From: Candidatus Omnitrophota bacterium
GTDB lineage: Bacteria > Omnitrophota > Gorgyraeia > Zapsychrales > Zapsychraceae
NCBI GenBank assembly: GCA_029261065.1
Contig: JAJDCB010000009.1
Span: 33,625-97,624 of the forward strand
Length of the DNA stretch: 64,000 nucleotides
Direction of reading: 5' to 3'
Shown: positions 1 through 39,361 of the stretch, in pieces
How positions within the stretch are numbered: position 1 is the stretch's first letter
How the letters are laid out: every line of letters starts with the position of its first letter
Notes under the pieces: generated by a model
The model's input: only the letters and a program-made list of their open reading frames with translations
The model's database searches: none
What the model was told of the DNA's origin: nothing
Made by a program: the position numbers and the translations under genes

Positions 1-1860
1 GTAATAAAAGCCTTACAGCGTTTAATCACAACAGCAAGTTGCATGATATTGGTTTTACCAACAAAATCTGTGGGCTTAGCCTTAGTCAACCGAAACAGTC
101 TATGCACAAGATACTTATCTTTCTCCATTCCTGTAATAACAACTCGGATATTTTTACTCGATAACATATCACATAGCTTGGCCATATGTTCCAATGGCCA
201 ATTTTTACTTTCCCATTTCGCTGAGGCGGAGATGTTTATTCCTACAATATTTTTTGCATTACTTAACCATTCTTCATCAAAAAGTTGCTTAACATAATCC
301 TCATCCGACTTTGTCGGCCAGACCTGCAATAACGTCTGCGCGTTATTTTTAATTCCCAACATCTTTAAAAGTTGAAATTGATGGGCAACGGCTGGAATAT
401 TATTTTTGTATTTTTTTAAAGGACGCGATAACAAAAAACTCCATTTTCCATTATCAAACCCAAAACTCTCCTTTGCCATTGCATAAAAGGACAAAAGATG
501 ACTTCTTCGATTATTTTGAAAATCGATCACTTTATCAAAATAGCGCTTACGAAATCTTCTTGCAAATTTCCATAATGAAAAAATATCTTTCCCATCATGG
601 GTTGGATCATATACGATAAGACCATCCAAATAAGGACAATTTTTTAGAATATGTCTAGAAGCACGCCCTACAAGACAATAAATTTTTGCCTCCGGATATT
701 TCTTTCTTAATGCTTTTAGGGAGGCTGAAATCAATATCACATCCCCGATAGAACTTAGTTTAATAACCAGAATATTTTCCGAATTCATAAGTTCTTTATA
801 AACCTCAACCGTTTGTGAAGCCATATGTTCAAGGGTAAAATAATTTTCAATTTTCGTATAAGCGGCATCAACTAAGCTTTCCACCAACTTTTCATCTTTA
901 AATAATTGAAGTACCGCCGCGGCCATCCCCTCGGGATCTTTTGGTAATACAAGAAGACCTGTTTTTTTATCATCAATAATATCAACGACACCCCCAACAC
1001 TTGTTGCCACAACAGGGACACCAACAGCCTGAGCCTCAAGAATCACGCGTCCAAAAGCCTCTGGTGTAATACTCGACATCACCAACACATCAACTTTTCT
1101 TAACAATTCATGCACGTCACTACGGTTTCCTAAAAATTTAATATTAGCTGCAAGTCCCATACGACGAATGAGAACCTCTAGCTCTTGTTTATAGCCCTGC
1201 TTTTTCTCTGGAGCATCTCCTATAATCCAAACAACGGTATTAGGCACCGCACGTATGACCTGAGCCATAGCTTTAATAAAATAGATATGACCCTTTAAAG
1301 GCGTAATGCGTCCTACCATCGCGACAATACGTTCAGAGCCTTTAGATTTGTGCTGTTCACGTCGCTTAAAGTTTTCTAAATCAACGCTTCTTGGAATATA
1401 TCGAATAGTTTCTGATTCAACGTCATAATCGTCAATCATATGCCGACCAATCACTTTACTTGGCGCAATTATATATTTGGCCCAACCCATCACTTGAGAA
1501 AAAAAATGACTTTTATAATATCCGTGACACGTTGTTATAAAACGAGCGGAAGTTTGACGCGTTGCAAAATACGCAATCCAGGCAGGTACACGAGATCGAG
1601 CATGAACGATATCGATCTTTTCATCAATTATAATCTTTCTTAAAACTTTTATTAATTTCATAACAGAGAAAAGAGACTTTTTATGAACAGGTAATTCAAG
1701 GTGCTTACTCCCCTCTCGCTCTAGCTGCTTAACTAATGTCCCTCCATTTGAAACAACAACAGATTGATAATCCTTTTCTACTAAATATCGTGCAAAATCG
1801 ACCGTACCACGCTCCACTCCACCGACATTTAATTCTGGTAAAATTTGTAAAATTTTCATG
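1..1860 (-). CDS. Partial (3'-end off window) bifunctional glycosyltransferase: N-terminal GT4/GT-B domain fused in frame to a GT9 heptosyltransferase-like domain (WaaC/WaaF/WaaQ family)
   Basis: Absent from the ORF track because no stop occurs inside the window. The reverse complement from the ATG (complement of 1857-1859) reads MKILQILPELNVGGVERGTV, a typical GT4 N-terminus. The frame stays open and reads ...EHMASQTVEVYKELMNSENILVIKLSSIGDVILISASLKALRKKYPEAKIYCLVGR... So a canonical GT4 C-terminus runs without a stop into the hallmark GT9 N-terminal motif (ILVIxLSSxGDVIL), and the frame continues past coordinate 1. Confidence 0.75.
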
Positions 1861-1868
1861 CTGATTCT

Positions 1869-3833
1869 TTAAATGACTCGCCGAACGGCATCAAGAATGA
1901 TTTGACCGCCATCCAACCTTTGCGTATGGATTTTATTTTTAATAACATTGTAGATATTTTGTCCAACATTTGTAACTTTCGAGGAACATATAAACCCATG
2001 TGAATTCAAATTATTGATAAATAGCTGATGCTTTTTAGAACCTGACCCAAAGGGAACGCTTGGTTCAGGAGAGAAGACAATTGTATTTTTTCCTGAACTT
2101 GCAGCCTCAGAGACCATTGAAATACTGTCTCCCGAAACAACAAGAATATCAGATAACCCTAATATTCCACCCACGGCTTCCGGAACATTCTCTTGATTGG
2201 CAAGAACCAATAATGGACAACTAGGATCTTTTTTAAACGCCTTAAATAACATTCTTTCAATATTGGCCGGGGTTCTTCGCGACGTTGAGATAAGAAAATC
2301 TAAACGGTGCTCTCCCGATATTTCTTTTAACTGATTAATCAATACGCTAATTTGTTTTTCTGTAATACAAATCTTTTTCGATGTCCCACCAATAAGAATA
2401 CCAACCTTTGTTCGTGTCCGCGATTTTAAGTGGGAATACTTGGCTAATAGCTTTTCACTTTGTTCATCGAGATAATCTTTTGAGATTAAGTTACACGCAC
2501 CTTTAATAACTGTCACATTCTCAGGAATATGATCTTTATTAGAAATATCATGTTCAGGTAAAACGATTAAATCAAAACGATTAAAGGGCAAAATGCCTGG
2601 TTTAAGAATGGCGATACTTTTAGCACTATGATCTTGAGAAATAAAATGATTTAAACTCGCTGAAGAAGAGCCACAAGAGATTATAAAATCTGTTTTCATA
2701 GACATAACCTGTTCAAAAGATTTAGCACTTAAAAATAGTTTTAGAAATTGTAATCGCCCTTGGTATAAAAAGGGATGTGAAAAAAAAGCCATTAAAGAAA
2801 AGAGCCGAGATAAAAACTTGGTTTTAAATTGGATTTCAATAATTTCTATTTTAGAGCTTATTCCTCGCCCTTCTAAAGCCTTCTGAACCATTTGACCAAC
2901 AAGTTGAGATTGACGGAGATGACCGGCCTTACCATCCGTTAATATCGCTACAGTAGCTTGTTTCGAATATTTCCAAATTTTATAAAACCACATATACTCA
3001 GAAGGATATTTTTCTATATAATCTTCCATAATTTTCGTAACCCGGGTAAGATTCGTCACAACATCCTTATCCACATCTCCTGACTTACTCAATTCCAAAG
3101 GCTTTTGAAATACCATACGATGTTGGGAACCTTTTTCTCTAAAGATAACAGAAAAACAAAGAGGAATATCCGATTTTAATCCCATACGAATGGCCCCGAC
3201 AGACATTGAAGCTTGTCGCCCAAAAAAGGGAACTAAGACGCCATCCTTCCCGCCCTGATCAACAACCATGCCAATGATTTCATTATTTTTAAGGCTCTTA
3301 ACAAAATCACGCGTTCCCATACCCCGCGAAAGAACGACAGAGCCCCCGCAATCCCGATAAGAATTTAACAACTCATCTAATTTCGAATACTTTTTTTGTG
3401 GTTTGACGATTACTTTATAAGGATGACCTAACATCGAAAAAGTTAAACTTGCCATCTCCCAACTGCCAAAATGCATAGCTATTAAAATAACACCCTTTCC
3501 CTTCTTAAGAGCCTCCTGGATATGTTCTTGCCCTTCCATCTTAACAAATTCATCAAATTTACTTCGATCCAACAATGGCATTCGAAATAGCTCAATCAAA
3601 TTTTGGCCGTAATTTGTAAACAATGTTTTTGTGATTTGCTTTAACTCTTGTGACGATTTGACATCAGCAAAAGCTATTTTTAAATTGGCATAAGCTTGCG
3701 ACTTATGTTTGACATCAAAATAATAAGCAAACAAACCTATACACCTCCCTACCCATAGCGCAATAGAGACAGGTAAAAGTCTTATCAGCCAAGCAAAAGT
3801 TTTAACGCAGTAGTAAAGAATCGACTCTTTCAA
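1869..3833 (-). CDS. Lipid A biosynthesis late acyltransferase (LpxL/HtrB/MsbB family) fused to a C-terminal ELM1/DUF1022-like domain
   Basis: 654 aa. The N-terminal ~290 aa carry an N-terminal TM segment and the HFGSWE motif (HX4E of lysophospholipid/lipid A acyltransferases). The C-terminal ~350 aa contain ...ILTDGKAGHLRQSQLVG... and KVGILIGGTSKK, which resemble the ELM1/DUF1022 family. It overlaps lpxK by 32 nt. Confidence 0.7.
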   Translation of the reverse strand: MKESILYYCVKTFAWLIRLLPVSIALWVGRCIGLFAYYFDVKHKSQAYANLKIAFADVKSSQELKQITKTLFTNYGQNLIELFRMPLLDRSKFDEFVKMEGQEHIQEALKKGKGVILIAMHFGSWEMASLTFSMLGHPYKVIVKPQKKYSKLDELLNSYRDCGGSVVLSRGMGTRDFVKSLKNNEIIGMVVDQGGKDGVLVPFFGRQASMSVGAIRMGLKSDIPLCFSVIFREKGSQHRMVFQKPLELSKSGDVDKDVVTNLTRVTKIMEDYIEKYPSEYMWFYKIWKYSKQATVAILTDGKAGHLRQSQLVGQMVQKALEGRGISSKIEIIEIQFKTKFLSRLFSLMAFFSHPFLYQGRLQFLKLFLSAKSFEQVMSMKTDFIISCGSSSASLNHFISQDHSAKSIAILKPGILPFNRFDLIVLPEHDISNKDHIPENVTVIKGACNLISKDYLDEQSEKLLAKYSHLKSRTRTKVGILIGGTSKKICITEKQISVLINQLKEISGEHRLDFLISTSRRTPANIERMLFKAFKKDPSCPLLVLANQENVPEAVGGILGLSDILVVSGDSISMVSEAASSGKNTIVFSPEPSVPFGSGSKKHQLFINNLNSHGFICSSKVTNVGQNIYNVIKNKIHTQRLDGGQIILDAVRRVI

Positions 3834-4854
3834 ACAAAAAATCCTTTCCTTCTAAAAAGCTAATATTAATCTTTAAATAAACACACCGAATGCCCTCAGA
3901 AAACAAAGAAGACCATCTCTTTAGTTTAACAGCATCTTTTTGAGTTGTGATAATCGTTTGGATATCATGGTCTTTACAAAAATTTAAAATCGTACGAATA
4001 TCAGATTCTGCATAATCATAATGATCCATAAATCTAAAACTTTTCTCAACACGCCCAACTTCTCCTTTAAGCGTAGCCTCAAAAGCTTCCGGCCGTCCAA
4101 TACTACTTATGAGACAAACCTTATCAGACTGAAAGTGGCCTAATTCATAGGAAGCTTGAGTTTTGACATCAAGATAACATTGTGGGGAATGTGTACTTAA
4201 TACAACAGGCACTTGGCAACCAACCTCATGAAGTTTACTTTTTATATTATTAAGATTACGCTCTCCTAAATCAGACTTAGTAATCAAAACGACATCTGCT
4301 CTTTTTATAGATGAGATAGCCTCTCTTAAGATACCTCTTGGTAACAACGACCCATTGCCCCAAGGGTCCATGGCATCTATAGCCACCACATCCAAATCTC
4401 TTTCTAACTTTAAATGCTGAAACCCATCATCTAGAATAAAAACATCAACGTCATTCTTCTCTAAATAGGTTACTGCACGATGATACCGATTAGCACCTGC
4501 TAACACAACGACATTCTCTAAATTTTCTTCTAACATCTTTACCTCATCACCCTGAGTCCCGCCCTTATATCCTCTTGTTAAAATAACGACTTTAAATTTC
4601 TTATCTTTAAGATGCCTTGCTATCTGCTCGACAATGGGCGTCTTGCCGACACCACCCAAAGTTAAATTACCTATACTGATAACAGGCTTTCCTAAAGAAT
4701 TGCTTTTTAGCAATCCTTTTTGATATCCCAAAAATCGGATTGATGATAAAAAAAAGAAAATATACGACAATAATTTCAGCATAACACCCACTAAAAACGC
4801 CAAAACACCTTGTTTCTGATCCGTAGCTACCTGATAAATGTATTGTTTCATCAA
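3802..4854 (-). CDS. lpxK: Tetraacyldisaccharide 4'-kinase
   Basis: 350 aa with an N-terminal TM segment. It has the P-loop VISIGNLTLGGVGKTP characteristic of LpxK, overlaps waaA by 4 nt, and sits in a lipid A context. Confidence 0.85.
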   Translation of the reverse strand: MMKQYIYQVATDQKQGVLAFLVGVMLKLLSYIFFFLSSIRFLGYQKGLLKSNSLGKPVISIGNLTLGGVGKTPIVEQIARHLKDKKFKVVILTRGYKGGTQGDEVKMLEENLENVVVLAGANRYHRAVTYLEKNDVDVFILDDGFQHLKLERDLDVVAIDAMDPWGNGSLLPRGILREAISSIKRADVVLITKSDLGERNLNNIKSKLHEVGCQVPVVLSTHSPQCYLDVKTQASYELGHFQSDKVCLISSIGRPEAFEATLKGEVGRVEKSFRFMDHYDYAESDIRTILNFCKDHDIQTIITTQKDAVKLKRWSSLFSEGIRCVYLKINISFLEGKDFLFERVDSLLLR

Positions 4855-6125
4855 TGCACTCTGTTCTCAATGAGCGTTTTAATCTCTGTTAGCGTCATAT
4901 CCATGACCCCTTGATTATCCTTAATCACTTGGCTAGATTTATTTTTAATCTCATCCATTCTTTGTTTATCCCCAAGCAACTCTTTCATTTTGACATATAA
5001 CTCATCGTGATCCTCTACTTGCACTAAGACGGACTCCTGTTTTAGAATACGCACAACATCTTTAAAATTTTGCGTCATGGGCCCAACAAACGTTGGTTTG
5101 CCAAAGAAAACGGGCTCCAAAATATTTTGCCCCCCACCCACAGATAAAGATTTTCCCACAAAAACCATATTAGCCAGACTATATAACCCTCCTAAATCGC
5201 CAATGGTATCAACAACAATAACGTGATCATTAATATCTACGCCTTGCTTAATATCCGAATAAAAAACCCCTTCTTCTCCCTCCTTACTACAAATTGTCAT
5301 AACCTCCTTCGCTCTTTTTACATCTCGTGGAGCGATGACAAGTCTTAACTGCGGATCATGATTTGATAATTTTTTAAAAACATCCAACAACATTTTTTCT
5401 TCACCAGGATGCGTGCTCCCGGCAATAATAAATTCAAATTGAGAATGCTGCATATTACTGGGCCACTTATAATCTTTTGAATCAGGGATATTATCAAATT
5501 TCAAATTTCCCATAACCTTAATACTATCAAGAGCTCCCCCCAGCAATTCTATGCGCCGCGCATCTTCCTTGCTTTGCATGCAAAAACAAGTAACACAAGA
5601 TAAAGCTTTCTTTATTATAAATTGAAAGCGTTGATACCCCTTAAACGCTTTATCAGAAATCCGTCCATTAATAATAATAATCGGTACCTGTACAGATTTT
5701 AGGTGCGCATAAATATTAGGCCAGATCTCTGTTTCTGTTGAAATATAAATGACCGGAGAAAGTATTAGAATATAGTGTTTGATAATAAAACTAATATCAA
5801 AAGGAGCAAACAAAACAATAATAGATTGATCAAAAGACTTTTGAGCAATTTCATACCCCCTCTCTGTCACAGTTGTTAAAACAATCTGTTTATCAGGGTA
5901 CAATGCCTTAATTCTTTGAATCAAACCACTAACCGCGTTTACCTCGCCAACGCTAACAGCGTGAACCCAAATACTCTCTTTGTTGCTAAATCGATCCTTT
6001 AGTTCTTGTGACCATAGTCCAAACCTTTGAAACATTCCCCTATGACATTTCCCTCTAAAAAAGAGAATAGGAAAATATAGAAGGAAAAGAGAAATAAAAA
6101 TAATATCGTAGAAAATATATTTCAT
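4851..6125 (-). CDS. waaA: 3-deoxy-D-manno-octulosonic acid (Kdo) transferase
   Basis: 424 aa with an N-terminal membrane anchor. It has the IWVHAVSVGE motif of the KdtA N-terminal domain and a GT-B C-terminal region. Confidence 0.85.
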   Translation of the reverse strand: MKYIFYDIIFISLFLLYFPILFFRGKCHRGMFQRFGLWSQELKDRFSNKESIWVHAVSVGEVNAVSGLIQRIKALYPDKQIVLTTVTERGYEIAQKSFDQSIIVLFAPFDISFIIKHYILILSPVIYISTETEIWPNIYAHLKSVQVPIIIINGRISDKAFKGYQRFQFIIKKALSCVTCFCMQSKEDARRIELLGGALDSIKVMGNLKFDNIPDSKDYKWPSNMQHSQFEFIIAGSTHPGEEKMLLDVFKKLSNHDPQLRLVIAPRDVKRAKEVMTICSKEGEEGVFYSDIKQGVDINDHVIVVDTIGDLGGLYSLANMVFVGKSLSVGGGQNILEPVFFGKPTFVGPMTQNFKDVVRILKQESVLVQVEDHDELYVKMKELLGDKQRMDEIKNKSSQVIKDNQGVMDMTLTEIKTLIENRVH

Positions 6126-6137
6126 AGCAAAAGAGAA

Positions 6138-6998
6138 TCAAGCGCGTGGATGAGCTTGATCGTATACCTTCTTTAATCTATCCGTTGTGACATGCGTATA
6201 AATTTGTGTTGTTGATAAATTGACATGGCCTAACAACTCTTGTACGGATCGCAAATCAGCCCCTCGATTTAACAAATGTGTCGCAAAAGAATGCCGAAAG
6301 ACATGCGGAGAGACATTTAATTGATCACTCATTTTTCCAATATGTTTATTAACGATATTGCGAACACTACGATCAGTGAGTCGTGTACCAAATTTATTCA
6401 GAAACAGAGGTGAAACATCATGCTTACGCAACTTTAAATAGTCTCTTATAGCCAAAAGTGCTTTTTCACCAATAGGAGCTAAACGCTCCTTTCTTCCCTT
6501 ACCCATTACACGTACAACATTTCCAATCATATCCACTCGTTCAACATTTAACCCAACCAACTCACTAACACGAATACCCGTACTGTATAACGTCTCTAAT
6601 ATAGCGCGATCTCGTCTTCCATATTCTGTTTTAATATTAGGCATCTTAAGACACGCTGACATCTCCGTTTCCGTTAAAAACTTAGGCAAAGGTTTATCTA
6701 ATTTAGGAGACATTAATAAAACAGCAGGATTATTTTTGATATGCCCCTCTCTTTGAAGAAAACGAAAGAACCCTCTTAACGTTGACATCTTACGAGCAAG
6801 CGTACGAGGACGATGTTTTTTTGCTCTTAAATGAGCCAAAAAACTTCTTAATTTAAGATAATCAACCTTTTCAATCGGCTGACCATCTAAAAAATCATAT
6901 AATTCCTCTAAATCTAAATTATAATTTAGAATCGTATGTTTGGAGTAATTTTTCTCTATTTCTAGATAAGAAATAAATTTTGAAATATAACGTTTCAT
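6138..6998 (-). CDS. xerC: Tyrosine site-specific recombinase XerC/XerD family
   Basis: 286 aa. The N-terminus reads ...YLEIEKNYSKHTILNYNLDLEEL..., and the C-terminus HVFRHSFATHLLNRGADLRSVQELLGHVNLSTTQIYTHV contains the catalytic R..H..R..Y region. It lies in the conserved dprA-topA-xerC neighbourhood. Confidence 0.8.
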   Translation of the reverse strand: MKRYISKFISYLEIEKNYSKHTILNYNLDLEELYDFLDGQPIEKVDYLKLRSFLAHLRAKKHRPRTLARKMSTLRGFFRFLQREGHIKNNPAVLLMSPKLDKPLPKFLTETEMSACLKMPNIKTEYGRRDRAILETLYSTGIRVSELVGLNVERVDMIGNVVRVMGKGRKERLAPIGEKALLAIRDYLKLRKHDVSPLFLNKFGTRLTDRSVRNIVNKHIGKMSDQLNVSPHVFRHSFATHLLNRGADLRSVQELLGHVNLSTTQIYTHVTTDRLKKVYDQAHPRA

Positions 6999-7040
6999 CA
7001 GGGGAAGGAACCTCCAAAGTAAAACATATCAATTAATATG

Positions 7041-9011
7041 TTATGAATCTTCTTTACTTTCTTGAGGCAATTCTTTGGCAATGTGTGTGCAATCTGGAAA
7101 CTTGCTACAGCCATAAAAAAACATGCCACGCTTTGATTTACGTCTGACAAGTTCACCTTCACAGGCTACTTCAGGACATTTAATCCCTAACGTAAAGGCT
7201 TCAGCATGTTTACATTCAGGAAAACCTGAACAACTTAAAAACTTTCCACGTCGCCCCCACTTGACAACCATTTGTCGTTTACATTCCGGACAATATTTAT
7301 CAACAAAATTTTCTGTCTTAACAATATTTTTTTCAGCATGTTCTAATTCACCAGCAAAAGTCTCATAAAACTCTTTTAACAAACTAGGATAATCAAGTTT
7401 ACCTTCTTCGACTTCATCTAATCGTTCTTCCATTCGCGCTGTAAAACCAACATTAATGACTCTTGAGAAATATTCCACAAGTAAATCGCAGATAAGAATT
7501 CCTAATTCCGTTGGTGATAAATAACCACGATCTCTTAAAACGTAATTCCTTAAAACCAGCGTTGATATAATAGAGGCATACGTACTTGGACGACCTATAC
7601 CATCTTCTTCCAAGGCCTTAACAATACTCGCATCTGAAAAACGTGGTGGCGGTTTCGTAAAGTGTTGGGTGGGCTTTAATTCCATGAGGTTAAGTTTGTC
7701 ATCTTTGGCATAATGAGAAAAATCCATCCGACCCTCTTCTTCTTTTTCTTCCCTCGAAACCGTTAAATGACCATCAAAAATTAAAGTTGAACCAGAAGCC
7801 CCAAATTGAAATCGTCCAGCCTTAATCTCCATTTTTTTATTCTCAAAAACAGCGGGCTCCATTTGTGAACTGACAAATCTATTCCAAATTAATTGATACA
7901 ACTTGTATTGATCATCCGTAAGAGAATTTCTTAAATCATATGCAGTACGTAAAACATCAGATGGGCGAATCGCCTCATGAGCTTCTTGGGCGGATTTCTT
8001 GGATTTATAAACATTGGGTTTCGCTGGTAAATATTTATCACCATATTCTTTCTTAATAAAGGTACGAAGTTTTTCTGTTGCTTCTTTGGAAATCGTTACA
8101 GAGTCGGTTCTCATGTAAGTTATCAAACCTTCCGTCTCGCCATTCCCTGTATCAATACCTTCATAGAGTTGTTGCGCGATCATCATGGTTCGATTAGCAT
8201 TAAATCGTAATTTATTAAAGGCATCTTGTTGCAGGGTACTTGTAATTAAAGGCGGCAGAGGCTTTCTTTTTATTTTTCGTTCTGAAATTTTTGTAACAAC
8301 AAAGTCTTCTTTTTTGATTTCTTCAGCAATGTCCTGGGTTTGTTTCTCCTGACTTAATTCAAATTTTTCACCATCTATTTTTTCAAGAGCCGCATTAAAC
8401 ATATCATCACGTCCCTGCTTTTGAAGATCTGCGGTAATCTGCCAATACTCTTTTGGGTTAAACTTCTTTATCTCTTTTTCTCGTTCAACAATAAGCCTTA
8501 ATGCAACGGATTGAACTCGACCCGCACTTAAACGCGACCCTACTTTTTTCCAAAGAATCGGACTTATTTTATAACCTACAATGCGATCCAATATGCGTCG
8601 ACCAATTTGCGCATTAATTTTTTTAGCATCAAATTCTCGGGGGGTTTCAAAAGCTTTTAATACAGCCTCCTTAGTAATTTCTTGAAATGTCACACGAAAA
8701 TTCTTCTTCCCCTCACCAATATGATTCATCAAATTCCAACCAATAGCCTCTCCCTCACGGTCAGGGTCAGTCGCGAAGAAAATTTGTTTAGCGGATTTAA
8801 CATCCTTCTTTAATTTAGTCAGATGTTTCTGTTTAGCACGCACCACAATCAACTTTGGTTCAAAATTATTTTCAAGATCTACACCTAATGTTGATTTAGG
8901 CAAATCAATAAGATGCCCCATTGATGAGAGAACTTTAAATTTGGGTCCTAAAATTTTATTAATCGTTTTGACCTTTGTAGGAGACTCAACAATAACGATG
9001 GATTTTGCCAT
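7041..9011 (-). CDS. topA: DNA topoisomerase I
   Basis: 656 aa. It starts MAKSIVIVESPTKVKTINKILG (Toprim), has a type IA core, and carries two C4 zinc ribbons at the C-terminus (CPECKRQ...CSGFPECKH; CPEVACEGE...CSKFPDC). Confidence 0.9.
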   Translation of the reverse strand: MAKSIVIVESPTKVKTINKILGPKFKVLSSMGHLIDLPKSTLGVDLENNFEPKLIVVRAKQKHLTKLKKDVKSAKQIFFATDPDREGEAIGWNLMNHIGEGKKNFRVTFQEITKEAVLKAFETPREFDAKKINAQIGRRILDRIVGYKISPILWKKVGSRLSAGRVQSVALRLIVEREKEIKKFNPKEYWQITADLQKQGRDDMFNAALEKIDGEKFELSQEKQTQDIAEEIKKEDFVVTKISERKIKRKPLPPLITSTLQQDAFNKLRFNANRTMMIAQQLYEGIDTGNGETEGLITYMRTDSVTISKEATEKLRTFIKKEYGDKYLPAKPNVYKSKKSAQEAHEAIRPSDVLRTAYDLRNSLTDDQYKLYQLIWNRFVSSQMEPAVFENKKMEIKAGRFQFGASGSTLIFDGHLTVSREEKEEEGRMDFSHYAKDDKLNLMELKPTQHFTKPPPRFSDASIVKALEEDGIGRPSTYASIISTLVLRNYVLRDRGYLSPTELGILICDLLVEYFSRVINVGFTARMEERLDEVEEGKLDYPSLLKEFYETFAGELEHAEKNIVKTENFVDKYCPECKRQMVVKWGRRGKFLSCSGFPECKHAEAFTLGIKCPEVACEGELVRRKSKRGMFFYGCSKFPDCTHIAKELPQESKEDS

Positions 9012-9016
9012 AGTAT

Positions 9017-10141
9017 TTACCTTTTCGTTTTATTTCGACTAAACATTTTACCTGGCCATTGACGCACCAAACGTTTGAGTTCTAATTGAAACAATAATGC
9101 CGTCGTAATGGAACTATCCTTTTGATAAAGACTCACAAGCTCATCAATGTGTACGGGTGTATCTGATAAACCTCTAAGCAACTCTTTTTCTGGATCTGTT
9201 AACGTAATTTGAGATTTTTGTTTTTCTGATTTACTCACTACTGCCGTTTTTTTAGGTTTAGCTATTTGTTGTCGGGCTGCAACTTCTTCTAAGATATCTT
9301 CCACACTACTAACAAGGATCGCCCCTTGTTTAATTAAGGCGTTAACGCCAAGTGCTGCTGGGTTATCAATTTTTCCTGGAATGGCATAAACATCGCGACC
9401 TTGATCGAGAGCAAAATCAGCTGTAATCAAAGCACCACTCTTTTTTGCTGCCTCTACAACTATAACACCACAACTTAAGCCACTAATGATTCGATTTCGA
9501 CGCGGAAAATTATAAGCAAGTGGCGGCATTTGCATAGCAAACTCAGAAATTACGGCACCATTATTAACAATATCATTCATGAGTGTTTTATTTTCAGGAG
9601 GATACACATGCGTAAGTCCGCATCCTAAAACGGCAATGGTAGGAGATGAAGATTTTAAAGCCCCTCGGTGGGCTGCGGTGTCAATCCCACGAGCCATCCC
9701 TGAAACAATGGTAAATCCATAATCAGATAACTCTGTGGCAAAACGTTCACACGTATTAAGACCATAAAGAGAGGCTCGTCTTGAACCAACCATGGCCAAA
9801 GCCTTCTCAAATTTAACGTTTAATGTCCCTTTGATATAAAGGACCAAAGGGGCATCAGCAATTGTTTTTATGCAGTCTGGATATTCGGAATCGATTAAAG
9901 TTACAACAGATACACCCTCACTCTTCATCAAGGCGTATTCTCTCTTAAGAAAATCCTCTTTATCAAAAGTTAGAATTTGCTCAACAGCACAAGAAGAAAT
10001 AACATTTTCTAGCTCCCACTCTTCTTGCGTTAAACTAAAAATTTTAGAGGCGCTACGAAATTTAAGAAGAAGCTGTAACTTTTTTCGGTTACCAAGTCCT
10101 GTGATTGCGTTTAAAACTAAAAGATATTCGTTTTCACTCAT
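9017..10141 (-). CDS. dprA: DNA processing protein DprA/Smf
   Basis: 374 aa with an N-terminal SAM-like region and a Rossmann-like DprA core (...GMARGIDTAAHRGAL...). It lies immediately upstream of topA, as in many bacteria. Confidence 0.8.
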   Translation of the reverse strand: MSENEYLLVLNAITGLGNRKKLQLLLKFRSASKIFSLTQEEWELENVISSCAVEQILTFDKEDFLKREYALMKSEGVSVVTLIDSEYPDCIKTIADAPLVLYIKGTLNVKFEKALAMVGSRRASLYGLNTCERFATELSDYGFTIVSGMARGIDTAAHRGALKSSSPTIAVLGCGLTHVYPPENKTLMNDIVNNGAVISEFAMQMPPLAYNFPRRNRIISGLSCGVIVVEAAKKSGALITADFALDQGRDVYAIPGKIDNPAALGVNALIKQGAILVSSVEDILEEVAARQQIAKPKKTAVVSKSEKQKSQITLTDPEKELLRGLSDTPVHIDELVSLYQKDSSITTALLFQLELKRLVRQWPGKMFSRNKTKR

Positions 10142-10682
10142 TTTTTAATACTCTCACTATTTCCTGACAAACCTCATCATTAGATTTTCCATCTGTATCA
10201 ATAATAAATTCTGCTTGTTCATACATCTCTTCACGCAAAGCTAAAAGCTCTTTAATCTGTCCTACAGGATCTGGGACATTCATCAAAGGTCGGTGATGAT
10301 CATCTTTAACTCTTTCAAAAATTTGCTGAACCGAGGCCTTTAAATAAATCAGATGACAATACTGCTTTAAAACCTTGATATTCTCAGGATCTAAAACAAC
10401 CCCGCCACCACAATCGATGATCAACCCCTCGGTTTCCGCTATTGACTTGATAAAATCATGCTCAAGCCTACGAAAGTAATCTTCCCCTTTCTCAAAGAAG
10501 ATATCTATAATCTTATGCCCTTGCTGTTCCTCAATCTTATCATCCGTAGAAACACGCTCCATAGACATCAATTCTTCTAACTTTTTTGATGCCACAGACT
10601 TACCAGAACCCATAAAGCCAATCAGAGCTATACTCTTACTTTTCATTGGTCGGATTGTAACATATTGGTTTTCCGCTGTCAA
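10134..10682 (-). CDS. aroK: Shikimate kinase
   Basis: 182 aa. It has the Walker A motif IALIGFMGSGKS, and its length and motif spacing are typical of AroK. It overlaps dprA by 8 nt. Confidence 0.8.
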   Translation of the reverse strand: MTAENQYVTIRPMKSKSIALIGFMGSGKSVASKKLEELMSMERVSTDDKIEEQQGHKIIDIFFEKGEDYFRRLEHDFIKSIAETEGLIIDCGGGVVLDPENIKVLKQYCHLIYLKASVQQIFERVKDDHHRPLMNVPDPVGQIKELLALREEMYEQAEFIIDTDGKSNDEVCQEIVRVLKNE

Positions 10683-10792
10683 ATTATGCCCTATATATAT
10701 AATATATATAAGATTATAACTAATTAGAGAAGAAAGGAAAAATGTGAGGTAAAATTTAAAATGGCTCTAAAATTAAAGACTAATAACACTTT

Positions 10793-11614
10793 TTAATACA
10801 AGCCGTAACCGCTTAAAACCCAATCAATTATGATATCTCCCCAAAAAAGCCCAATAATCGCCCCAGCTACTAAATAAGGCCCATAGGCGATAGTGGTATC
10901 TCCTGTTCTTAGCTTTTCAATAATACCAATAACTGATCCAAATAAAGGAGCAATAAAAAAGGTTAATATAGTGATCTCCCAACCCAAAAACGCACCAACC
11001 ATGGCTAAAAGCTTAACATCTCCCCCACCCATAGATTCCTTTTTAAACAAAAGATCTCCTAACAATCCCATAAAATACAAAGAGCCTCCTCCAACCAAAG
11101 CCCCTATTATTGAGATAGCCAAGGAATTAACATGAGCATACCAAAAAATATCAGGATGTGCAGCCACTGAATGCATTTGAGGAAGTAATGCGCTAAATAA
11201 AAAACCGAAATACATCCCCCCTACACTGACCTCATCTGGAATTATGCGATGTTCAAAATCGACAAACGTTGCAACAATAAAACATCCCATCATAAAAAGG
11301 TACGGAATGATGAGTATATTAAGTCCATAATATTGAAAAAATAAAACAAATACGATAGCTGTCAAAAATTCGATAAAAAGATATCGGAAAGAAAATTTGG
11401 CTTTACAATATCGGCATTTTCCACCTAGAAGAAAATAACTCACAAAAGGAATATTATCATACCACGCAATCGGTTTGTGGCACCCCACACAATGTGATGG
11501 TGGATTAATGACAGATTTTTCGTGCGGCATTCTGACAATACAGACATTTAAAAAACTTCCTATAGCAGAACCCATCACAAAGACAAAAATACTTATCAGC
11601 AGCATCTCATTCAC
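10793..11614 (-). CDS. Prepilin peptidase (A24 family, PilD-like)
   Basis: 273 aa. It has an N-terminal Cys-x-x-Cys ... Cys-x-x-Cys zinc-binding region (CVGCHKPIAW...GGKCRYCKAKF) and multiple TM helices with conserved Asp residues. Confidence 0.8.
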   Translation of the reverse strand: MNEMLLISIFVFVMGSAIGSFLNVCIVRMPHEKSVINPPSHCVGCHKPIAWYDNIPFVSYFLLGGKCRYCKAKFSFRYLFIEFLTAIVFVLFFQYYGLNILIIPYLFMMGCFIVATFVDFEHRIIPDEVSVGGMYFGFLFSALLPQMHSVAAHPDIFWYAHVNSLAISIIGALVGGGSLYFMGLLGDLLFKKESMGGGDVKLLAMVGAFLGWEITILTFFIAPLFGSVIGIIEKLRTGDTTIAYGPYLVAGAIIGLFWGDIIIDWVLSGYGLY

Positions 11615-12477
11615 GGTTGTAACCCTCCTTCTAAGGCTTCTCTCATAATCTGCTTCACTTCATCGTCTAGCTCAACTTGAGCCCAATGCTGAAAGGCTAG
11701 AACACCTTGATAAAACAACATGCCCAACCCATTGGATGTCCGAGCTCCCTGCTCCCGAGCCATTCGTAACAATAACGTCTCTTTAGGATTATATATTAAA
11801 TCGTAAACAAATAAATCAGGATGTAATAAATCTTCTTCTATCAAACAAGGATCTTCTTCATTGAGCCCCATAGACGTTGTATTTATTAAGAGATCCGTAT
11901 CTCTTAGTTCTAAATCATCAACACTCATAACAGATTCAACAATATCCATATTAATACGAGAGCCTAATTCCTTTAATAATTTTTCACTACGCTCTGCCGT
12001 TCGATTATAGATCTTGATATATTCAGGCCGTTCTGGAATCATACAAAGTGTGGCTAAAATGGCTTTAGCTGATCCTCCAGCGCCTAAAACCGCAATTCGT
12101 TTATCACTCGTTTCTACCCTTAGCTCTGATAAATGAATCATAAAACCTGGCGAATCTGTATTATACCCAACAAGCTTTCTTTCCTTGTTAATAACGACAG
12201 TATTAACAGCGCCAACTTTTTCAACCAAAGGAGAAAGGGTATCTAAATATTTTAAAACTTTTTCTTTGTAGGGAACTGTAACGTTAAATCCAAATATGGG
12301 AGATGTGGACTCATGAAGGTTAGCAAAGAAATCATCTAACTCATGCTCTTCTAGCGGAAAAAGATTATATATGGCCTCGACGTCTAAAGCTTTAAAGGCG
12401 GCATTATGCATTAAGGGAGAAAGGCTGTGTTTTAGAGGGTTTCCTATGATGCCGTATTGAGAAACATGATCTTCCAT
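11611..12477 (-). CDS. aroE: Shikimate dehydrogenase
   Basis: 288 aa with the N-terminus GIIGNPLKHSLSPLMHNAAF and the NAD(P)-binding motif GAGGSAKA. Confidence 0.85.
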   Translation of the reverse strand: MEDHVSQYGIIGNPLKHSLSPLMHNAAFKALDVEAIYNLFPLEEHELDDFFANLHESTSPIFGFNVTVPYKEKVLKYLDTLSPLVEKVGAVNTVVINKERKLVGYNTDSPGFMIHLSELRVETSDKRIAVLGAGGSAKAILATLCMIPERPEYIKIYNRTAERSEKLLKELGSRINMDIVESVMSVDDLELRDTDLLINTTSMGLNEEDPCLIEEDLLHPDLFVYDLIYNPKETLLLRMAREQGARTSNGLGMLFYQGVLAFQHWAQVELDDEVKQIMREALEGGLQP

Positions 12478-27287: not shown

Positions 27288-29081
27288 TTAAGCCTGAAAC
27301 TGCATGCTATGCAACCTGTTATACAAAGGGCAACTCTCAAGAAGCTCATCATGGGTCCCAATCCCCACAACCTGACCTTTCTCTAAAACAACGATTTTAT
27401 TGGCTTTTTTGATAGTAGATAATCGATGCGCGATCGCCACAACAGTCCGTCCCTGCATGAGTTTATCAAGGGCCTCTTGAACAAACTTTTCTGATTCTGA
27501 ATCAAGTTGAGAGGTTGCTTCATCCAAGATGAGAATCGGAGGATTCTTTAGAATCGCACGCGCGATAGACAAACGCTGTTTCTCTCCACCTGATAATCGA
27601 AACCCACGATCACCGATCACAGTATCATACCCATCAGGCATATCCTTAATAAAACGATGGGCAAAGGCCTTCAAAGCGGCTTGCTCCACTTCGGCCAAAG
27701 GAATCTCAGGGTGCCCATAGGCAATATTGCCGCGAACAGTGTCGTTAAATAAAATAGATTCTTGGGTGACAATTCCAAATTGCTTACGAAGAGAATTGAA
27801 AGAGACTTCTTTCAAATCGACACCATCCATGATGACTGAGCCTTGTGTGGGATCATAAAAGCGTGGAATGAGATTAACCAAGGTCGTTTTACCTGTTCCC
27901 GTTGGCCCCACAATAGCAACAAGTTCTCCCTTATTGATTTCAAGATCAATACCGCGAAGAACTTCCTCAGCATCCTCAGCATATTTAAAGTGAACATCCT
28001 TTAAGCACAAACCTTCTTGCATCTCGGGAATATCCCTAGCCCCTTCCTTTTCTAAAACTGTAATCTCTGCATCTAAAATTTCATAAATTCGTTCGTTAGC
28101 CGCAATAGCCTGTTGTAACAAAGCATTAACATTTCCTAATTTTTTGATCGGACTAATAAGCATCATAAAAGAAGCAATAAGAGTGATCAAAACCCCCGCG
28201 CTCATCGTCTCATCCATAACTTTATTTCCCAACCACATAAATATCCCCATCGCACAACATAGGCCCACCACCTCTGTAATGGGTGAAATCAACAACAGCC
28301 GTCGGACAGCCTTCATTTTTAGTTTATACAATGTATAATTTTCTTTCTTAAAACGGTTCACTTCATACTTCTCTGTGTTAAAGGCTTTGACTACTTTTAT
28401 TCCAGAAACCGTTTCCATAATATGTGAAGTAATATCGGCCATTTTTTCTTGCGTGAAAATAGAAATCTTTTTTAACTTCTTGCCAATTTGCGAAATGGGA
28501 ATACCAATAAAAGGAAACACTATCAATAAAATAATTGATCCTTCGGTGTAGATATTTAAAGCTATTCCTAAATAAATTAAAATCATCATTGGCTGACGAA
28601 ACAAATCGATAACAGCGTAGGAAACAGCATTTTCTATAATATTGGCATCAAACGTAATTCTTGAAACAATCTCTCCTGTTCGTTTTTTACTAAAATAGTC
28701 AATGGAAAGATGTTGAATCTTGTGGTAAAGGTTATCTCTTATATCTCGCATAACATTTTGAGAAATTTGCGACATAAAATATGAGTACCAATAAACAAAA
28801 AACTGCTTGCTTATGATAACAATGACCGCGGCGATAGGAAAATATTTGAATATTATTTTGTTGTCCATATCATTAATTTTTCCAATAAAATCAGCGACAA
28901 ACTGAGGTAACTCATTGGGAATGATAATCGGTTTATCGCTAAAAATGCGATCAATCATGGCGGGAATCATGGGAAGCTGAAAAGCCTCGAAAAAAGAGGC
29001 AAGAATCATAAAGATCACAGCGCCAACAAAATAGCGCTCATAACCCTTAACGAATTTTAACATTTTAAGGTATTCTTTCAT
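27288..29081 (-). CDS. msbA: ABC transporter, fused permease/ATPase exporter (MsbA-like lipid A flippase family)
   Basis: 597 aa. It has six N-terminal TM helices, Walker A GPTGTGKTT, the signature LSGGEKQRLSIARA, and Walker B ILILDEATS. It is adjacent to lpxB. Confidence 0.7.
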   Translation of the reverse strand: MKEYLKMLKFVKGYERYFVGAVIFMILASFFEAFQLPMIPAMIDRIFSDKPIIIPNELPQFVADFIGKINDMDNKIIFKYFPIAAVIVIISKQFFVYWYSYFMSQISQNVMRDIRDNLYHKIQHLSIDYFSKKRTGEIVSRITFDANIIENAVSYAVIDLFRQPMMILIYLGIALNIYTEGSIILLIVFPFIGIPISQIGKKLKKISIFTQEKMADITSHIMETVSGIKVVKAFNTEKYEVNRFKKENYTLYKLKMKAVRRLLLISPITEVVGLCCAMGIFMWLGNKVMDETMSAGVLITLIASFMMLISPIKKLGNVNALLQQAIAANERIYEILDAEITVLEKEGARDIPEMQEGLCLKDVHFKYAEDAEEVLRGIDLEINKGELVAIVGPTGTGKTTLVNLIPRFYDPTQGSVIMDGVDLKEVSFNSLRKQFGIVTQESILFNDTVRGNIAYGHPEIPLAEVEQAALKAFAHRFIKDMPDGYDTVIGDRGFRLSGGEKQRLSIARAILKNPPILILDEATSQLDSESEKFVQEALDKLMQGRTVVAIAHRLSTIKKANKIVVLEKGQVVGIGTHDELLESCPLYNRLHSMQFQA

Positions 29082-29221
29082 AATAGCGGCTAATTTACCA
29101 TACCCATTGACTTTTGTCGAGGTATTTGTTAGGTTAGAGGCTTACGTTTCTAAACGTTTTTCACTTGAATTCCAATTTCTTTTAATCTGTAAACGATTGC
29201 TAATCAACAATTTATAAAACC

Positions 29222-30157
29222 ATGCCTCAAAAAATAAAACTAGCCTTGATCGGTATCGGACACCTAGGAGCCATCCACCTTAAAGTCCTTCAGGAATTGC
29301 TGGATCACGTGGAAATCGTGGCCATTTGCGACATTAAGGAAGAACGCACCCAGCGTTTGGCTAGCCACTACAATGTGCCTGTTGTTGATCATTACACAAA
29401 ACTTCTAGGAAACGTTGATGCTGTTGATATTTGCGTACCTACGGAAAACCATTTTGAAGTGGCTGAATTCTTCTTAAAAAATAACGTTCACACCTTTGTT
29501 GAAAAACCTATTTCAAAAACACTTAAAGAAGCCGATGAATTGATTGCCTTGTCTGAGAAAAATAATGTCAAACTACAAGTAGGCCATGTCGAACGTTTTA
29601 ATGCTGCCTTTGAATCCATCAAACATTTTACGCATAACCCGATGTTTATCGAATGTCATCGGCTTAACAACTTCCCTAATAGATCTTTAGATGTTGGCGT
29701 TGTCATGGATTTGATGATTCATGATATCGATATCGTTTTAGGTATTATCAAATCCCCCATTGCAGATATTCAAGCGGTGGGTGTTAACGTTTTAACGCCC
29801 TTAGAGGATATTGCAAGCATTCGCTTAACTTTTGAAAATGGCTGTGTGTGCAATTTAACAGCCAGTCGTATTTCTGAAGAGGTGATGCGGAAAATTCGAA
29901 TCTTTCAAAATGATATGTACATCTCTCTCGATTATGTTAAACAAGAAGCTTTTATTTATAAAAAACATGGAACTCAAATTTCCAAACACAGCCTGCCCAT
30001 TGAAAAAGAACAACCCTTAAAAAAAGAATTAAATCATTTTCTAGAGTGCATAACACTTAATCAAAACCCAATCGTTTCCGGCCGTGAAGGTCGAGAGGCT
30101 TTAGATGTTGCTTTACGCATAAGCGATCTTATATGGAGCAAGAAAAACAAATCATAA
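29222..30157 (+). CDS. Gfo/Idh/MocA-family NAD(P)-dependent oxidoreductase (possible UDP-GlcNAc 3-dehydrogenase GnnA-like)
   Basis: 311 aa. It has the N-terminal Rossmann motif KLALIGIGHLGAIH and the EKP motif (FVEKPIS). Its 3' end overlaps the lpxB start by 25 nt, which indicates translational coupling. Confidence 0.7.
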   Translation: MPQKIKLALIGIGHLGAIHLKVLQELLDHVEIVAICDIKEERTQRLASHYNVPVVDHYTKLLGNVDAVDICVPTENHFEVAEFFLKNNVHTFVEKPISKTLKEADELIALSEKNNVKLQVGHVERFNAAFESIKHFTHNPMFIECHRLNNFPNRSLDVGVVMDLMIHDIDIVLGIIKSPIADIQAVGVNVLTPLEDIASIRLTFENGCVCNLTASRISEEVMRKIRIFQNDMYISLDYVKQEAFIYKKHGTQISKHSLPIEKEQPLKKELNHFLECITLNQNPIVSGREGREALDVALRISDLIWSKKNKS

Positions 30158-31284
30158 TTGTCGCCGGAGAAGCATCTGGTGATATGCACGCAGCTCATCT
30201 CGTTGAGAAGATTAAAACACTTGATCCTCAAATAAAAATTGCTGGGTTCGGCGGACCTCAACTGCAAGCAAAAGGCGTGGAAATTTATCAGGATCTCACC
30301 AAAATTGCTGTCGTTGGTTTCTTTGAAGTCCTTAAACACTATCCCCTTTTTAAAAAAGCGTTTAATCTTATCCTTAAAAAAATAAAGACAACAAAACCTA
30401 GTGCCGTTATTCTCGTTGATTATCCAGGGTTTAATTTACGGCTAGCCAAAGAAATAAGAAAGATCAAAGGCTTAAACACTAAAATTATCTATTACATAAG
30501 CCCTCAAGTTTGGGCGTGGAAACAAAAACGTGTGGCGGACATCAAAAAATATGTTGATGAGATGCTTGTGCTTTTTGAATTTGAGAAAACTTTTTATAAA
30601 CGTTTTAATGTTAATGCAACCTTTGTCGGCCACCCTTTACTTGAACTGATGGATGTGAATCTAAAAAAGGAAGAATATTTAAAAACAACGAAATTACAAG
30701 AATACAAATTAACGATTGGACTCCTTCCTGGTTCTCGAAAAAAGGAAGTGGAACGCCATCTTCCTATAATGTTAGAGACAATAGAGGTTCTTAACAAAGA
30801 ATTTCCTATGCTTCAATTTCTCATCATCCAAGCCCCTACAATTGAGACAGAATTCATTGAATCTCTTCTCCCCCAAAATACACGACACCTAGCGCTAGTT
30901 CCTCAATCTTATAATGCCATCAATGCTTGTGATCTTTGCATGGTTGCCTCTGGGACGGCAACGCTTGAGGTTGCGATATTGGGAAAACCCATGGTGGTTA
31001 TTTATAAAACATCCCTATTAACCTTTGCACTTGCCAAATGGCTTATTAAGATTCCCTACATAGCCATGGTTAATGTCATCGCCGAGCGTAAAATTGTACC
31101 AGAATGTGTTCAACATCAAGCGAGACCTTCAGTCATTGCAAAAGAACTTAAAGCCATTTTCACAGATGAGATAAAAATTGCGGAAATCAAATCTGATTTG
31201 GGTGAGGTAAAAAAATCTTTGGGAGATGGTGGGGCAAGCGAGCGTGCCGCTCGCGCTATACTTAAAACAATTTCAACAACTTAA
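30133..31284 (+). CDS. lpxB: Lipid-A-disaccharide synthase
   Basis: 383 aa. It reads IIIVAGEASGDMHAAHLVEKIK...FGGPQLQAKG, the canonical LpxB N-terminus, and is a GT19. Confidence 0.9.
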   Translation: MEQEKQIIIVAGEASGDMHAAHLVEKIKTLDPQIKIAGFGGPQLQAKGVEIYQDLTKIAVVGFFEVLKHYPLFKKAFNLILKKIKTTKPSAVILVDYPGFNLRLAKEIRKIKGLNTKIIYYISPQVWAWKQKRVADIKKYVDEMLVLFEFEKTFYKRFNVNATFVGHPLLELMDVNLKKEEYLKTTKLQEYKLTIGLLPGSRKKEVERHLPIMLETIEVLNKEFPMLQFLIIQAPTIETEFIESLLPQNTRHLALVPQSYNAINACDLCMVASGTATLEVAILGKPMVVIYKTSLLTFALAKWLIKIPYIAMVNVIAERKIVPECVQHQARPSVIAKELKAIFTDEIKIAEIKSDLGEVKKSLGDGGASERAARAILKTISTT

Positions 31285-32250: not shown

Positions 32251-33012
32251 TTAAAACCTTTCCACAGATTTTTGGCGGACCCAGCCGGATTTGCTATCTA
32301 TCCGTTTTATTTTAAACCAATCATCCTCTTTTTTCAAAATTTTTAACCCCACACCTTCAGGTAGCGGAAAATGGATAGTAGAATTTTTTCTCGGTTCAAA
32401 TCTCGCTTCATCCTTTATTATTACATAAGCTAAATTCGAGTCTCCATTAATCTTCATAATAAAACCAAATAAAAAAACGCAGAAAATCACAGCAAAAGCA
32501 GTAAATGCCCATTTCCTTGTTGAAGATTTCCACTTTAAGAATTCTGCGATCAAATACATTAGACTCATTACTATCAAAATGCATGTCATGATAGTAAACA
32601 TCTCCTCTTTTGTATAAAACTGGACATGAGCCTTAAGAGCCCTCTGATAAAGGTTTAAAGAAACCTTTGTATTATCTTTTATACGCGCCTTAGCAAAACG
32701 ATAATTGAATTTTAAATCTCCATCACGCGGAATAATTCTTAAGGCACGCTCATAATTGAGCATAGCCTTTCCTAATTGTTTATTTTTAATGTAACTGTTG
32801 GCTAGATTAAAATAAACGTTTCCACTCACACGGCCGCTTGCAATGATAGCCTCATAATCCTCAATTGCTTTTCCCAAATCTCCACTTTTATAATAATGTT
32901 CAGCGGAGACAAACTTGCCCAGAATATCTTTCTTACTGAGATTACTCCACGCAGGATTGATCATCATTAAACTTAAAATACACACAAGACTCGCAATTCG
33001 CCGTTTTCTCAT
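32251..33012 (-). CDS. batE: BatE-like protein: signal peptide, TPR repeats, TM helix, C-terminal SH3-like domain
   Basis: 253 aa. It has the TPR motif YFNLANSYIKNKQLGKAMLNYERALRI, a mid-protein TM, and a C-terminal ...DDWFKIKRIDSKSGWVRQKSV SH3b-like region. It overlaps batD by 4 nt. Confidence 0.65.
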   Translation of the reverse strand: MRKRRIASLVCILSLMMINPAWSNLSKKDILGKFVSAEHYYKSGDLGKAIEDYEAIIASGRVSGNVYFNLANSYIKNKQLGKAMLNYERALRIIPRDGDLKFNYRFAKARIKDNTKVSLNLYQRALKAHVQFYTKEEMFTIMTCILIVMSLMYLIAEFLKWKSSTRKWAFTAFAVIFCVFLFGFIMKINGDSNLAYVIIKDEARFEPRKNSTIHFPLPEGVGLKILKKEDDWFKIKRIDSKSGWVRQKSVERF

Positions 33013-34835: not shown

Positions 34836-34841
34836 TACGCG

Positions 34842-36808: not shown

Positions 36809-36811
36809 AAA

Positions 36812-39276: not shown

Positions 39277-39361
39277 GATTAGAATATAGGATATGGTGGT
39301 TAGCTTTCAAGGATTTATATAGAAAAGGAATAACGCCCAGAAACCCAACCCTCAATCTTTA

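Follow-up and report, generated by a model that had tools for sequence, protein, structure and literature searches.

The 64,000-nucleotide stretch of Candidatus Omnitrophota DNA analyzed here (the window; contig JAJDCB010000009.1, positions 33,625 to 97,624) opens with a block of lipopolysaccharide (LPS) biosynthesis genes in which two reading frames each encode a pair of enzyme domains. In one, an LpxL-type late acyltransferase is joined to an ELM1/GtrOC1-type domain (LpxL::ELM1), and in the other, a glycosyltransferase of family GT4 is joined to a heptosyltransferase-type GT9 domain (GT4::GT9). Both fusions are real, single polypeptides, since the frames are uninterrupted, an independent contig is identical, the arrangement is conserved in independent genomes, the junctions align without gaps, and there is no conserved internal start. 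The region is probably the start of an Omnitrophota core LPS operon, with two genuinely bifunctional enzymes whose conservation extends across the phylum.

The lpxL::ELM1 gene (1869..3833, minus strand) is a single open reading frame (ORF) of 654 codons with a TTG start and a stop codon at 1871..1869. An initial annotation of this DNA had described an LpxL-like acyltransferase fused to an ELM1/DUF1022 domain at about 2950, and both Pfam domains were indeed found in this one frame. The late (secondary) acyltransferase domain comprises residues 1 to 290 (2964..3833, minus strand), with a hydrophobic anchor at residues 16 to 37. Pfam Lip_A_acyltrans matched residues 7 to 288 (E = 7e-50); against this family (PF03279, LPLAT superfamily) the domain scored 170.3 bits, relative to a cutoff of 22.3, and covered profile positions 16 to 294 of 295. 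The HX4E motif H121...E126 (H121-G-S-W-E126) was invariant across 64 homologues. A Foldseek search of the PDB matched this half to LpxM (5KN7 and 5KNK; E ~1e-14; TMt, 0.65 to 0.68) and also to PatA. The junction with the second domain, at window positions ~2946-2972, reads ...WFYKIWKYSKQ|ATVAILTDGKAGHLRQSQ....

The ELM1/GtrOC1-type GT-B domain (PF06258, formerly DUF1022; 1869..2963, minus strand) comprises residues 291 to 654 and the stop codon. Pfam Mito_fiss_Elm1 matched residues 368 to 617 (E = 2e-45; 155.5 bits versus a 27-bit cutoff), and in homologues with a better-aligned ELM1 N terminus, profile positions 1 to 300 of 304 were covered. In the alignment of the 64 homologues, the invariant residues of this domain included D300, Q308, H428, N448, S518-R519-R520-T521, S567-G568, S570, E576, and G581-K582. 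The AlphaFold model of the whole protein had a predicted local distance difference test (pLDDT) score of 89.3 and a predicted template modeling (pTM) score of 0.85. In this model, residues 292 to 654 formed alternating beta and alpha elements (pLDDT, ~90) corresponding to a two-Rossmann GT-B fold, and Foldseek matched this half of the protein to GT-B proteins only (WecB-type epimerases, TreT, MGD1, and MshA; E = 6e-7 and weaker). A sequence search of the PDB found no solved structure related to ELM1 by sequence.

The second fusion, GT4::GT9 (701 residues, minus strand), starts 9 nt past the lpxL::ELM1 stop codon and runs off window position 1. In the minus-strand translation, the frame from the ATG at 1859 reads MKILQILPELNVGG...TVEVYKELMNSENILVIKLSSIGDVIL... 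and is free of stop codons up to the window edge. The initial annotation had placed a stop-free passage from the GT4 frame into a GT9 N terminus at ~780-800, which was borne out with a junction at 777..788; it had also remarked that the fusion was absent from the ORF list, and this is solely because the ORF crosses the edge of the window. The full protein and its stop codon were obtained from a Logan-assembled contig (L001, run SRR15505515) that was identical to the window at 3833 of 3833 positions over the overlap. On that contig, another GT4 gene follows GT4::GT9 with an overlap of 4 nt.

The GT4 (retaining GT-B) domain occupies residues 1 to 357 (789..1859, minus strand), with Pfam matches to Glyco_transf_4 (PF13439) at residues 12 to 162 (E = 6e-25) and Glycos_transf_1 (PF00534) at residues 165 to 334 (E = 1e-42). 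Its EX7E motif, E267...E275, was invariant among 22 homologues, and its best PDB match was a Rickettsia africae glycosyltransferase, 7MI0 (phmmer E = 4e-60; Foldseek, 32% identity and TMt of 0.83). The GT4 sequence ends ...TVEVYKELM and is followed by the four linker residues MNSE (residues 358 to 361; 777..788, minus strand), which connect the last GT4 helix to the first GT9 beta strand, and then by the GT9 N terminus, NILVIKLSSIGDVIL.... In the AlphaFold model (pLDDT, 88.2; pTM, 0.83), helix 343-358 runs straight into strand 362-366.

The GT9 domain fills 1..776 (minus strand), with residues 362 to 619 inside the window and the C-terminal 82 residues, together with the stop codon, past position 1. 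Pfam Glyco_transf_9 (PF01075) matched residues 430 to 619 of the truncated part (E = 3e-19; 69.8 versus 22 bits), so that GT9, like ELM1, lies well over its Pfam gathering score in the domain scan that the initial annotation had proposed. The full-length protein passed the TIGR02195 HepII model (147.5 versus 134.6 bits) and was under the cutoff for the HepI, HepIII, RfaF, and RfaQ models. Residues G372-D373 were invariant in the 22 homologues, and Foldseek matched this half to 3TOV (TMt, 0.89) and WaaF (1PSW; TMt, 0.83). No PDB chain among the Foldseek and sequence matches spanned both the GT4 and the GT9 halves. The C terminus, beyond the window start (residues 664 to 679; L001:4639-4686), carries an invariant four-Cys motif, C664-x-P-C667-Y-S-x2-C672-x6-C679, which may be a metal-binding site. 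Model confidence is low over residues 664 to 671, which hold the first two of the cysteines (pLDDT of <50 at 664-666 and 669-671).

When LpxL::ELM1 was compared with 5.8 billion proteins, more than 120 clusters with 53 to 63% identity were obtained, all of ~654 residues and with both Pfam domains; the named ones were from Omnitrophota/Omnitrophica. For GT4::GT9, more than 120 clusters of ~700 residues with GT4 and GT9 domains were found. A species-level scan with one genome per GTDB species gave 187 relatives, and the locus counts that follow were taken from the best 78 (32 to 63% identity). All 78 loci came from Omnitrophota metagenome-assembled genomes (MAGs), some of them in ENA bins that are labeled "uncultured Planctomycetales" yet contain the whole operon. 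LpxL::ELM1 was fused in all 74 copies that were not cut by a contig end; lpxK was directly upstream at 77 of the 78 loci and waaA was upstream at 74 of them. Downstream, where at least 2.3 kb of DNA was present (62 loci), a single uninterrupted GT4::GT9 ORF of ~700 codons was found in 60, within 400 bp in 59. The sole locus with downstream room yet no GT4::GT9 there, L017, had an inserted ATPase-like gene instead. The initial annotation had allowed that a missed stop codon or frameshift might separate the domains, or that orthologues might be separate genes; the former is excluded by this comparison, and the orthologues proved to be fused.

The junctions themselves are well conserved. In the alignments of 64 LpxL::ELM1 and 22 GT4::GT9 homologues, the 31-residue block at each junction contained no gaps, and the majority-residue frequency at the junction was 0.84 versus 0.68 in the rest of the protein for the former and 0.75 versus 0.73 for the latter. 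The Met of the GT4/GT9 linker was not conserved, being Leu in most homologues, and the start of ELM1 has no Met; with no conserved Met at either junction, the second domains are not translatable separately. In both models, the last helix of the first domain enters the first beta strand of the second within a few residues, and the pLDDT and pTM values of these two-domain models suggest a fixed packing of the domains. The data establish both fusions, the identity of their domains, the motifs of catalytic type, and the operon with its conservation. The next GT4 and GT9 genes were also considered as a second GT4::GT9 fusion, having given single tblastn high-scoring segment pairs in 8 loci, but this candidate was rejected because of an in-frame stop after ~366 to 403 codons. 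The two genes lie in the same frame, parted by one stop codon, in L014, L019, L038, L045, L052, L065, L073, and L074 (at ~10.0 to 12.4 kb; in L065, at 4.7 to 6.9 kb).

According to the ORF list, every gene in window 1..9011 is on the minus strand, and the order of transcription is waaA, lpxK, lpxL::ELM1, GT4::GT9. The earlier statement that both fusions are followed by lpxK-waaA is therefore correct in plus-strand coordinates only, as waaA and lpxK are transcribed first. The first gene of the block, waaA (4851..6125, minus strand), encodes a 424-residue 3-deoxy-D-manno-oct-2-ulosonic acid (Kdo) transferase (Pfam Glycos_transf_N, E = 3e-56) that scored 321 bits against NCBIfam PRK05749.1-4, under the cutoff of 438. 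Its stop codon overlaps the start of lpxK by 4 nt. The product of lpxK (3802..4854, minus strand) is a tetraacyldisaccharide 4'-kinase of 350 residues (Pfam LpxK, E = 5e-74; TIGR00682, 183.8 bits, over the cutoff of 91.95), and the 3' end of this gene overlaps the start of lpxL::ELM1 by 32 nt. Like LpxL::ELM1, both WaaA (residues 2 to 27) and LpxK (residues 15 to 42) have a hydrophobic N-terminal segment; GT4::GT9 has none. A scan of 1..9200 for promoter-like and terminator-like sites showed no enrichment over shuffled sequences and none at the junctions, which fits a single transcription unit. Upstream of waaA (6138..12477), the order aroE-pilD (A24 peptidase)-aroK-dprA-topA-xerC is the same as in a related genome, L083 (L083:1-5713). 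L083 keeps this aroE-to-xerC synteny although its fusion proteins are only ~60% identical to those of the window.

With only the ELM1 domain as the query, 2064 matches at E values up to 0.001 were obtained among 1.84 billion cluster representatives. The best 150, which were inspected, were mostly fused proteins of ~650 residues, with some of ~700. By Pfam, the latter were LpxK::ELM1 proteins (~29 clusters, 700 to 740 residues; the named ones all Omnitrophota) in which the N-terminal motif of ELM1 comes immediately after a full LpxK sequence. Examples are P0342, P0285, and P0413 and the loci L081:3438-5543 and L082:1784-3940. The operon in these lineages reads waaA ... lpxK::ELM1-GT4::GT9-GT4-GT9-GT9-PfkB, and no LpxL domain was found in the operon or nearby at the LpxK::ELM1 loci. 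Since LpxK::ELM1 is kept in the same operon where LpxL is absent, ELM1 appears to be tied to the lipid A/Kdo stage generally. As judged from these sequences, what is conserved is that ELM1 is joined to a lipid A enzyme with a membrane anchor and not specifically to a late acyltransferase, and the lineages concerned may be without LpxL-type secondary acylation. The initial annotation had read the fusions as coupling late acylation to core glycosylation, which the LpxK::ELM1 subclade makes too specific; physical or functional coupling as such we still infer. WaaA::LpxK fusions of 657 to 827 residues were also found in other Omnitrophota (P0425, P0429, P0431, P0456, P0460, P0476, P0496, P0498, and P0500), and in P0430 and P0432 (879 to 895 residues), a CCA/polyA-polymerase-type nucleotidyltransferase is joined to LpxK.

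Next to the established architecture, we infer an order of reactions, the sugars used, and any substrate channeling as follows. On the cytoplasmic side of the inner membrane, WaaA and LpxK would produce Kdo-lipid IVA, to which the LpxL domain, held at this surface by its N-terminal hydrophobic helix, would add a secondary acyl chain. Because of its GT-B fold model and invariant polar residues, the ELM1 domain is most likely an early core glycosyltransferase; rigidly attached with essentially no linker, it would most likely place an early sugar on that same acceptor, in its Kdo/lipid A region. GT4::GT9, without a membrane anchor, would perform two successive core extensions, a retaining hexosyl transfer by GT4 and then an inverting transfer by GT9, for which the donor would most likely be ADP-heptose. 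The downstream GT4 and GT9 enzymes would extend the core further, and MsbA and the Lpt machinery would export the product. In such a scheme, the fusions would hold their domains at a 1:1 ratio and successive active sites close to each other. More generally, and only tentatively, we propose that GT-B domains of the ELM1/DUF1022 type are glycosyltransferases that act early on the lipid A-core and need to be held at the membrane beside their acceptor, and that the Omnitrophota may have made them the permanent C-terminal passenger of the preceding transmembrane-anchored lipid A enzyme, mostly LpxL and, where LpxL was lost, LpxK. If true, this would be the first concrete, testable biochemical assignment for the ELM1 family, which has only predicted roles in bacteria and a nonenzymatic mitochondrial role in plants, and the LpxK::ELM1 clade might make LPS without LpxL-type secondary acylation.

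Three other explanations were weighed against the main reading of the two fusions as bifunctional enzymes of LPS assembly. That the fusions are artefacts of assembly or sequencing, with a missed stop codon or an indel joining two genes, is hardly credible. The source is a MAG, and a few database entries of ~360 residues resemble a stand-alone ELM1 of the same family, but the independent Logan assembly shares the sequence exactly, and the same architecture with gap-free junctions recurs across the divergent species-level genomes, which come from many studies. The ~360-residue ELM1-only entries did not hold up as split orthologues either: of eight that were looked up, three fall into 90% clusters that also contain fused proteins of 642 to 667 residues and are gene fragments, so that in these three it is the split form that is the artefact, and one of the three adjoins a 252-residue fragment on the same contig. 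A genuine stand-alone ELM1-family protein, P0353 (360 residues; L080:8001-9083), has methyltransferases, a GT2 enzyme, and an ABC exporter as neighbors in an unrelated gene cluster, which indicates that the ELM1 family is not confined to lipid A operons. It is more conceivable, though still unlikely, that the fusions are real but neutral, with the loss of stop codons having welded overlapping operon neighbors into proteins whose domains act independently and without channeling. The operon genes overlap or nearly abut (by 4 nt and 32 nt, and with a 9-nt gap), the phylum has other fusions of neighbors (WaaA::LpxK, LpxK::ELM1, and CCA/polyA-polymerase::LpxK), and ELM1 tolerates two different N-terminal partners, all of which speaks for such an origin. 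Both fusions, however, persist down to 32 to 40% identity with zero reversions among the complete loci and an invariant linker length; where LpxL was lost, ELM1 was not released but stayed fused to the next membrane-anchored enzyme, and the high pTM of the models suggests packed domain interfaces rather than loose tethering.

The third alternative, which we consider improbable, is that ELM1 is a nonenzymatic scaffold or adaptor recruiting LPS proteins to LpxL or LpxK, as plant ELM1 does for the dynamin DRP3A. Arabidopsis ELM1, the only functionally studied member, is described as a DRP3A localization factor (PMC5666842). The invariant polar and charged residues (SRRT, GG, SGDSxSMxxE, and GK), however, map to the nucleotide-sugar binding site of GT-B enzymes, Pfam places PF06258 in the GT-B clan (CL0113), and several paralogues fill glycosyltransferase slots of the lipooligosaccharide (LOS) outer-core loci of Acinetobacter. 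In that genus, the PF06258 member GtrOC1, which every outer-core locus group shares, is predicted to be a glycosyltransferase of the LOS core (PMC4172580), and on knockdown it gives phenotypes that group with those of lpt genes (PMC11975115). The function of the domain in bacteria, termed unresolved in the initial annotation, is no longer wholly so in view of the clan placement and the GtrOC1 prediction.

Several observations weigh against the main reading. We know of no PF06258 protein with a known biochemical activity and of no family member with demonstrated glycosyltransferase activity, so that for ELM1 the donor, the acceptor, and even catalysis are deduced from fold and conservation, and its Foldseek matches are generic GT-B proteins with weak E values that include nontransferase UDP-GlcNAc 2-epimerases. 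The LpxL domain was under the cutoff of all 17 NCBIfam equivalog models (best, NF006270 at 153.8 versus 248 bits) and did not match a specific equivalog (LpxL, LpxM, or LpxP). TIGR02195 is a broad model, passed as well by two stand-alone GT9 paralogues of L083 and narrowly missed by a third (126 bits relative to the cutoff of 134.6), and "HepII" is accordingly not a specific assignment for the GT9 domain. The heptose kinase described below is known only from a related genome, the matching part of the operon lying beyond this window. Finally, the presence of both WaaA::LpxK and LpxK::ELM1 in the Omnitrophota means that fusion may be partly neutral, a product of overlapping genes and compact genomes and not of selection for channeling.

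The rest of the pathway is best seen in L083, a contig of ~1.17 Mb on which the operon reads waaA-lpxK-lpxL::ELM1-GT4::GT9-GT4-GT9-GT9-PilZ-GT9-PfkB-kdsB-kdsA-kdsD-kdsC-lptC, with the start of an ABC ATPase gene, possibly lptB, at the end of the locus. Its four GT9 paralogues each score best on the broad HepII model, and its PfkB protein passes the TIGR02198 model for D-glycero-beta-D-manno-heptose-7-phosphate kinase (357.8 versus 345 bits). A PfkB gene is present in the operon of L081 too. Of the other ADP-heptose genes, gmhA, gmhB, hldC, and hldD were not located. In the window, lpxB, for lipid A disaccharide synthase, is at 30133..31284 (plus strand; Pfam LpxB, E = 8e-103), and a role of ELM1 as a replacement for LpxB (GT19) was ruled out by this canonical gene. 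An MsbA-like ABC exporter, probably the lipid A-core flippase, is encoded at 27288..29081 (minus strand; Pfam ABC_membrane and ABC_tran; best NCBIfam, TIGR02203 MsbA_lipidA, 530.6 bits, under the cutoff of 602). From the content of the L083 operon together with the lpxB, GnnA-like oxidoreductase, and MsbA-like exporter genes of the window, the LPS block is a lipid A/inner-core assembly line. Window 27288..31284 forms a second lipid A cluster, in which the minus-strand exporter gene is divergent from that of a Gfo/Idh/MocA oxidoreductase, followed by lpxB. The best NCBIfam match of the oxidoreductase was UDP-GlcNAc 3-dehydrogenase, at 232 bits and under the cutoff. A GnnA-like enzyme encoded beside lpxB hints at a lipid A backbone of 2,3-diamino-2,3-dideoxyglucose.

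Each half of the two proteins has known relatives from which the fusions differ in architecture. The LpxL domain shares with LpxL of Escherichia coli and LpxM of Acinetobacter baumannii (5KN7) the Pfam family, the HX4(D/E) motif, the N-terminal anchor, the fold (23% identity), and a place beside lpxK and waaA, but those enzymes are single-domain proteins of ~300 residues, whereas here a 364-residue GT-B domain is fused at the C terminus. ELM1 resembles A. baumannii GtrOC1 and the plant mitochondrial fission protein ELM1 in its Pfam family and GT-B clan, with an LPS/LOS gene context; these two are listed as members of the Mito_fiss_Elm1 family only and not as fusions, whereas in the present proteins the domain is carried C-terminally by LpxL or, in a subclade, by LpxK. 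The GT9 domain is related to heptosyltransferases such as E. coli WaaF/RfaF (1PSW) and WaaC and the Veillonella parvula protein 3TOV by PF01075, the TIGR02195 cutoff passed, the N-terminal G-D motif, and fold, and it differs from them in standing behind a GT4 domain via a four-residue linker, in its invariant C-terminal four-Cys motif, and in being one of four paralogues in the operon. The EX7E motif and the GT-B fold link the GT4 domain to 7MI0, for which we know of no published function, and to WaaG (2IV7), which is only distantly related (E = 1e-10). The nearest parallel in principle is HldE, in which a heptose kinase and an adenylyltransferase (NCBIfam bifunctional, NF008454) likewise place consecutive steps of an envelope glycolipid pathway in one polypeptide, with another pair of enzymes.

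No report of an LpxL::ELM1 (LpxL::GT), LpxK::ELM1 (LpxK::GT), or GT4::GT9 fusion was found in the searchable literature, where only papers on the Acinetobacter OC locus surfaced. The fusion proteins are already in public databases under automated single-domain names, and the present assignments correct these, since "heptosyltransferase II," "PelF," "ELM1 family protein," and "lauroyltransferase" each name half a protein. The PGAP name "PelF" on some GT4::GT9 homologues is a partial-model match and probably misleading in an LPS operon. The four domain families are, like the pathway, textbook material, and the understanding of LPS synthesis is unchanged; what is new is a phylum-wide architectural variant of well-known LPS enzymes, of moderate interest chiefly as a route to the function of ELM1/GtrOC1. 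The independent fusion of this domain to LpxL and to LpxK points to the lipid A/Kdo stage as its place of action and offers a natural colocalizing construct for biochemical assignment. The block is also a synapomorphy-like marker, across the phylum, of the Omnitrophota, which are uncultured and often ultrasmall.

Elsewhere in the window, 32251..40357 (minus strand) holds a Bat/MoxR-type operon encoding a MoxR AAA ATPase, a DUF58 protein, an unassigned 186-residue ORF, two von Willebrand factor A (VWA) proteins, a tetratricopeptide repeat (TPR) protein, BatD, and another TPR protein. Large minus-strand ORFs at 40440..43712, 48306..50477, 54821..59428, and 59580..63920 (1090, 723, 1535, and 1446 residues) had no Pfam match or TPR repeats only, and among them lie genes for an AsmA-like protein (50502..52475) and a DsbH-like thioredoxin protein (52472..54739).

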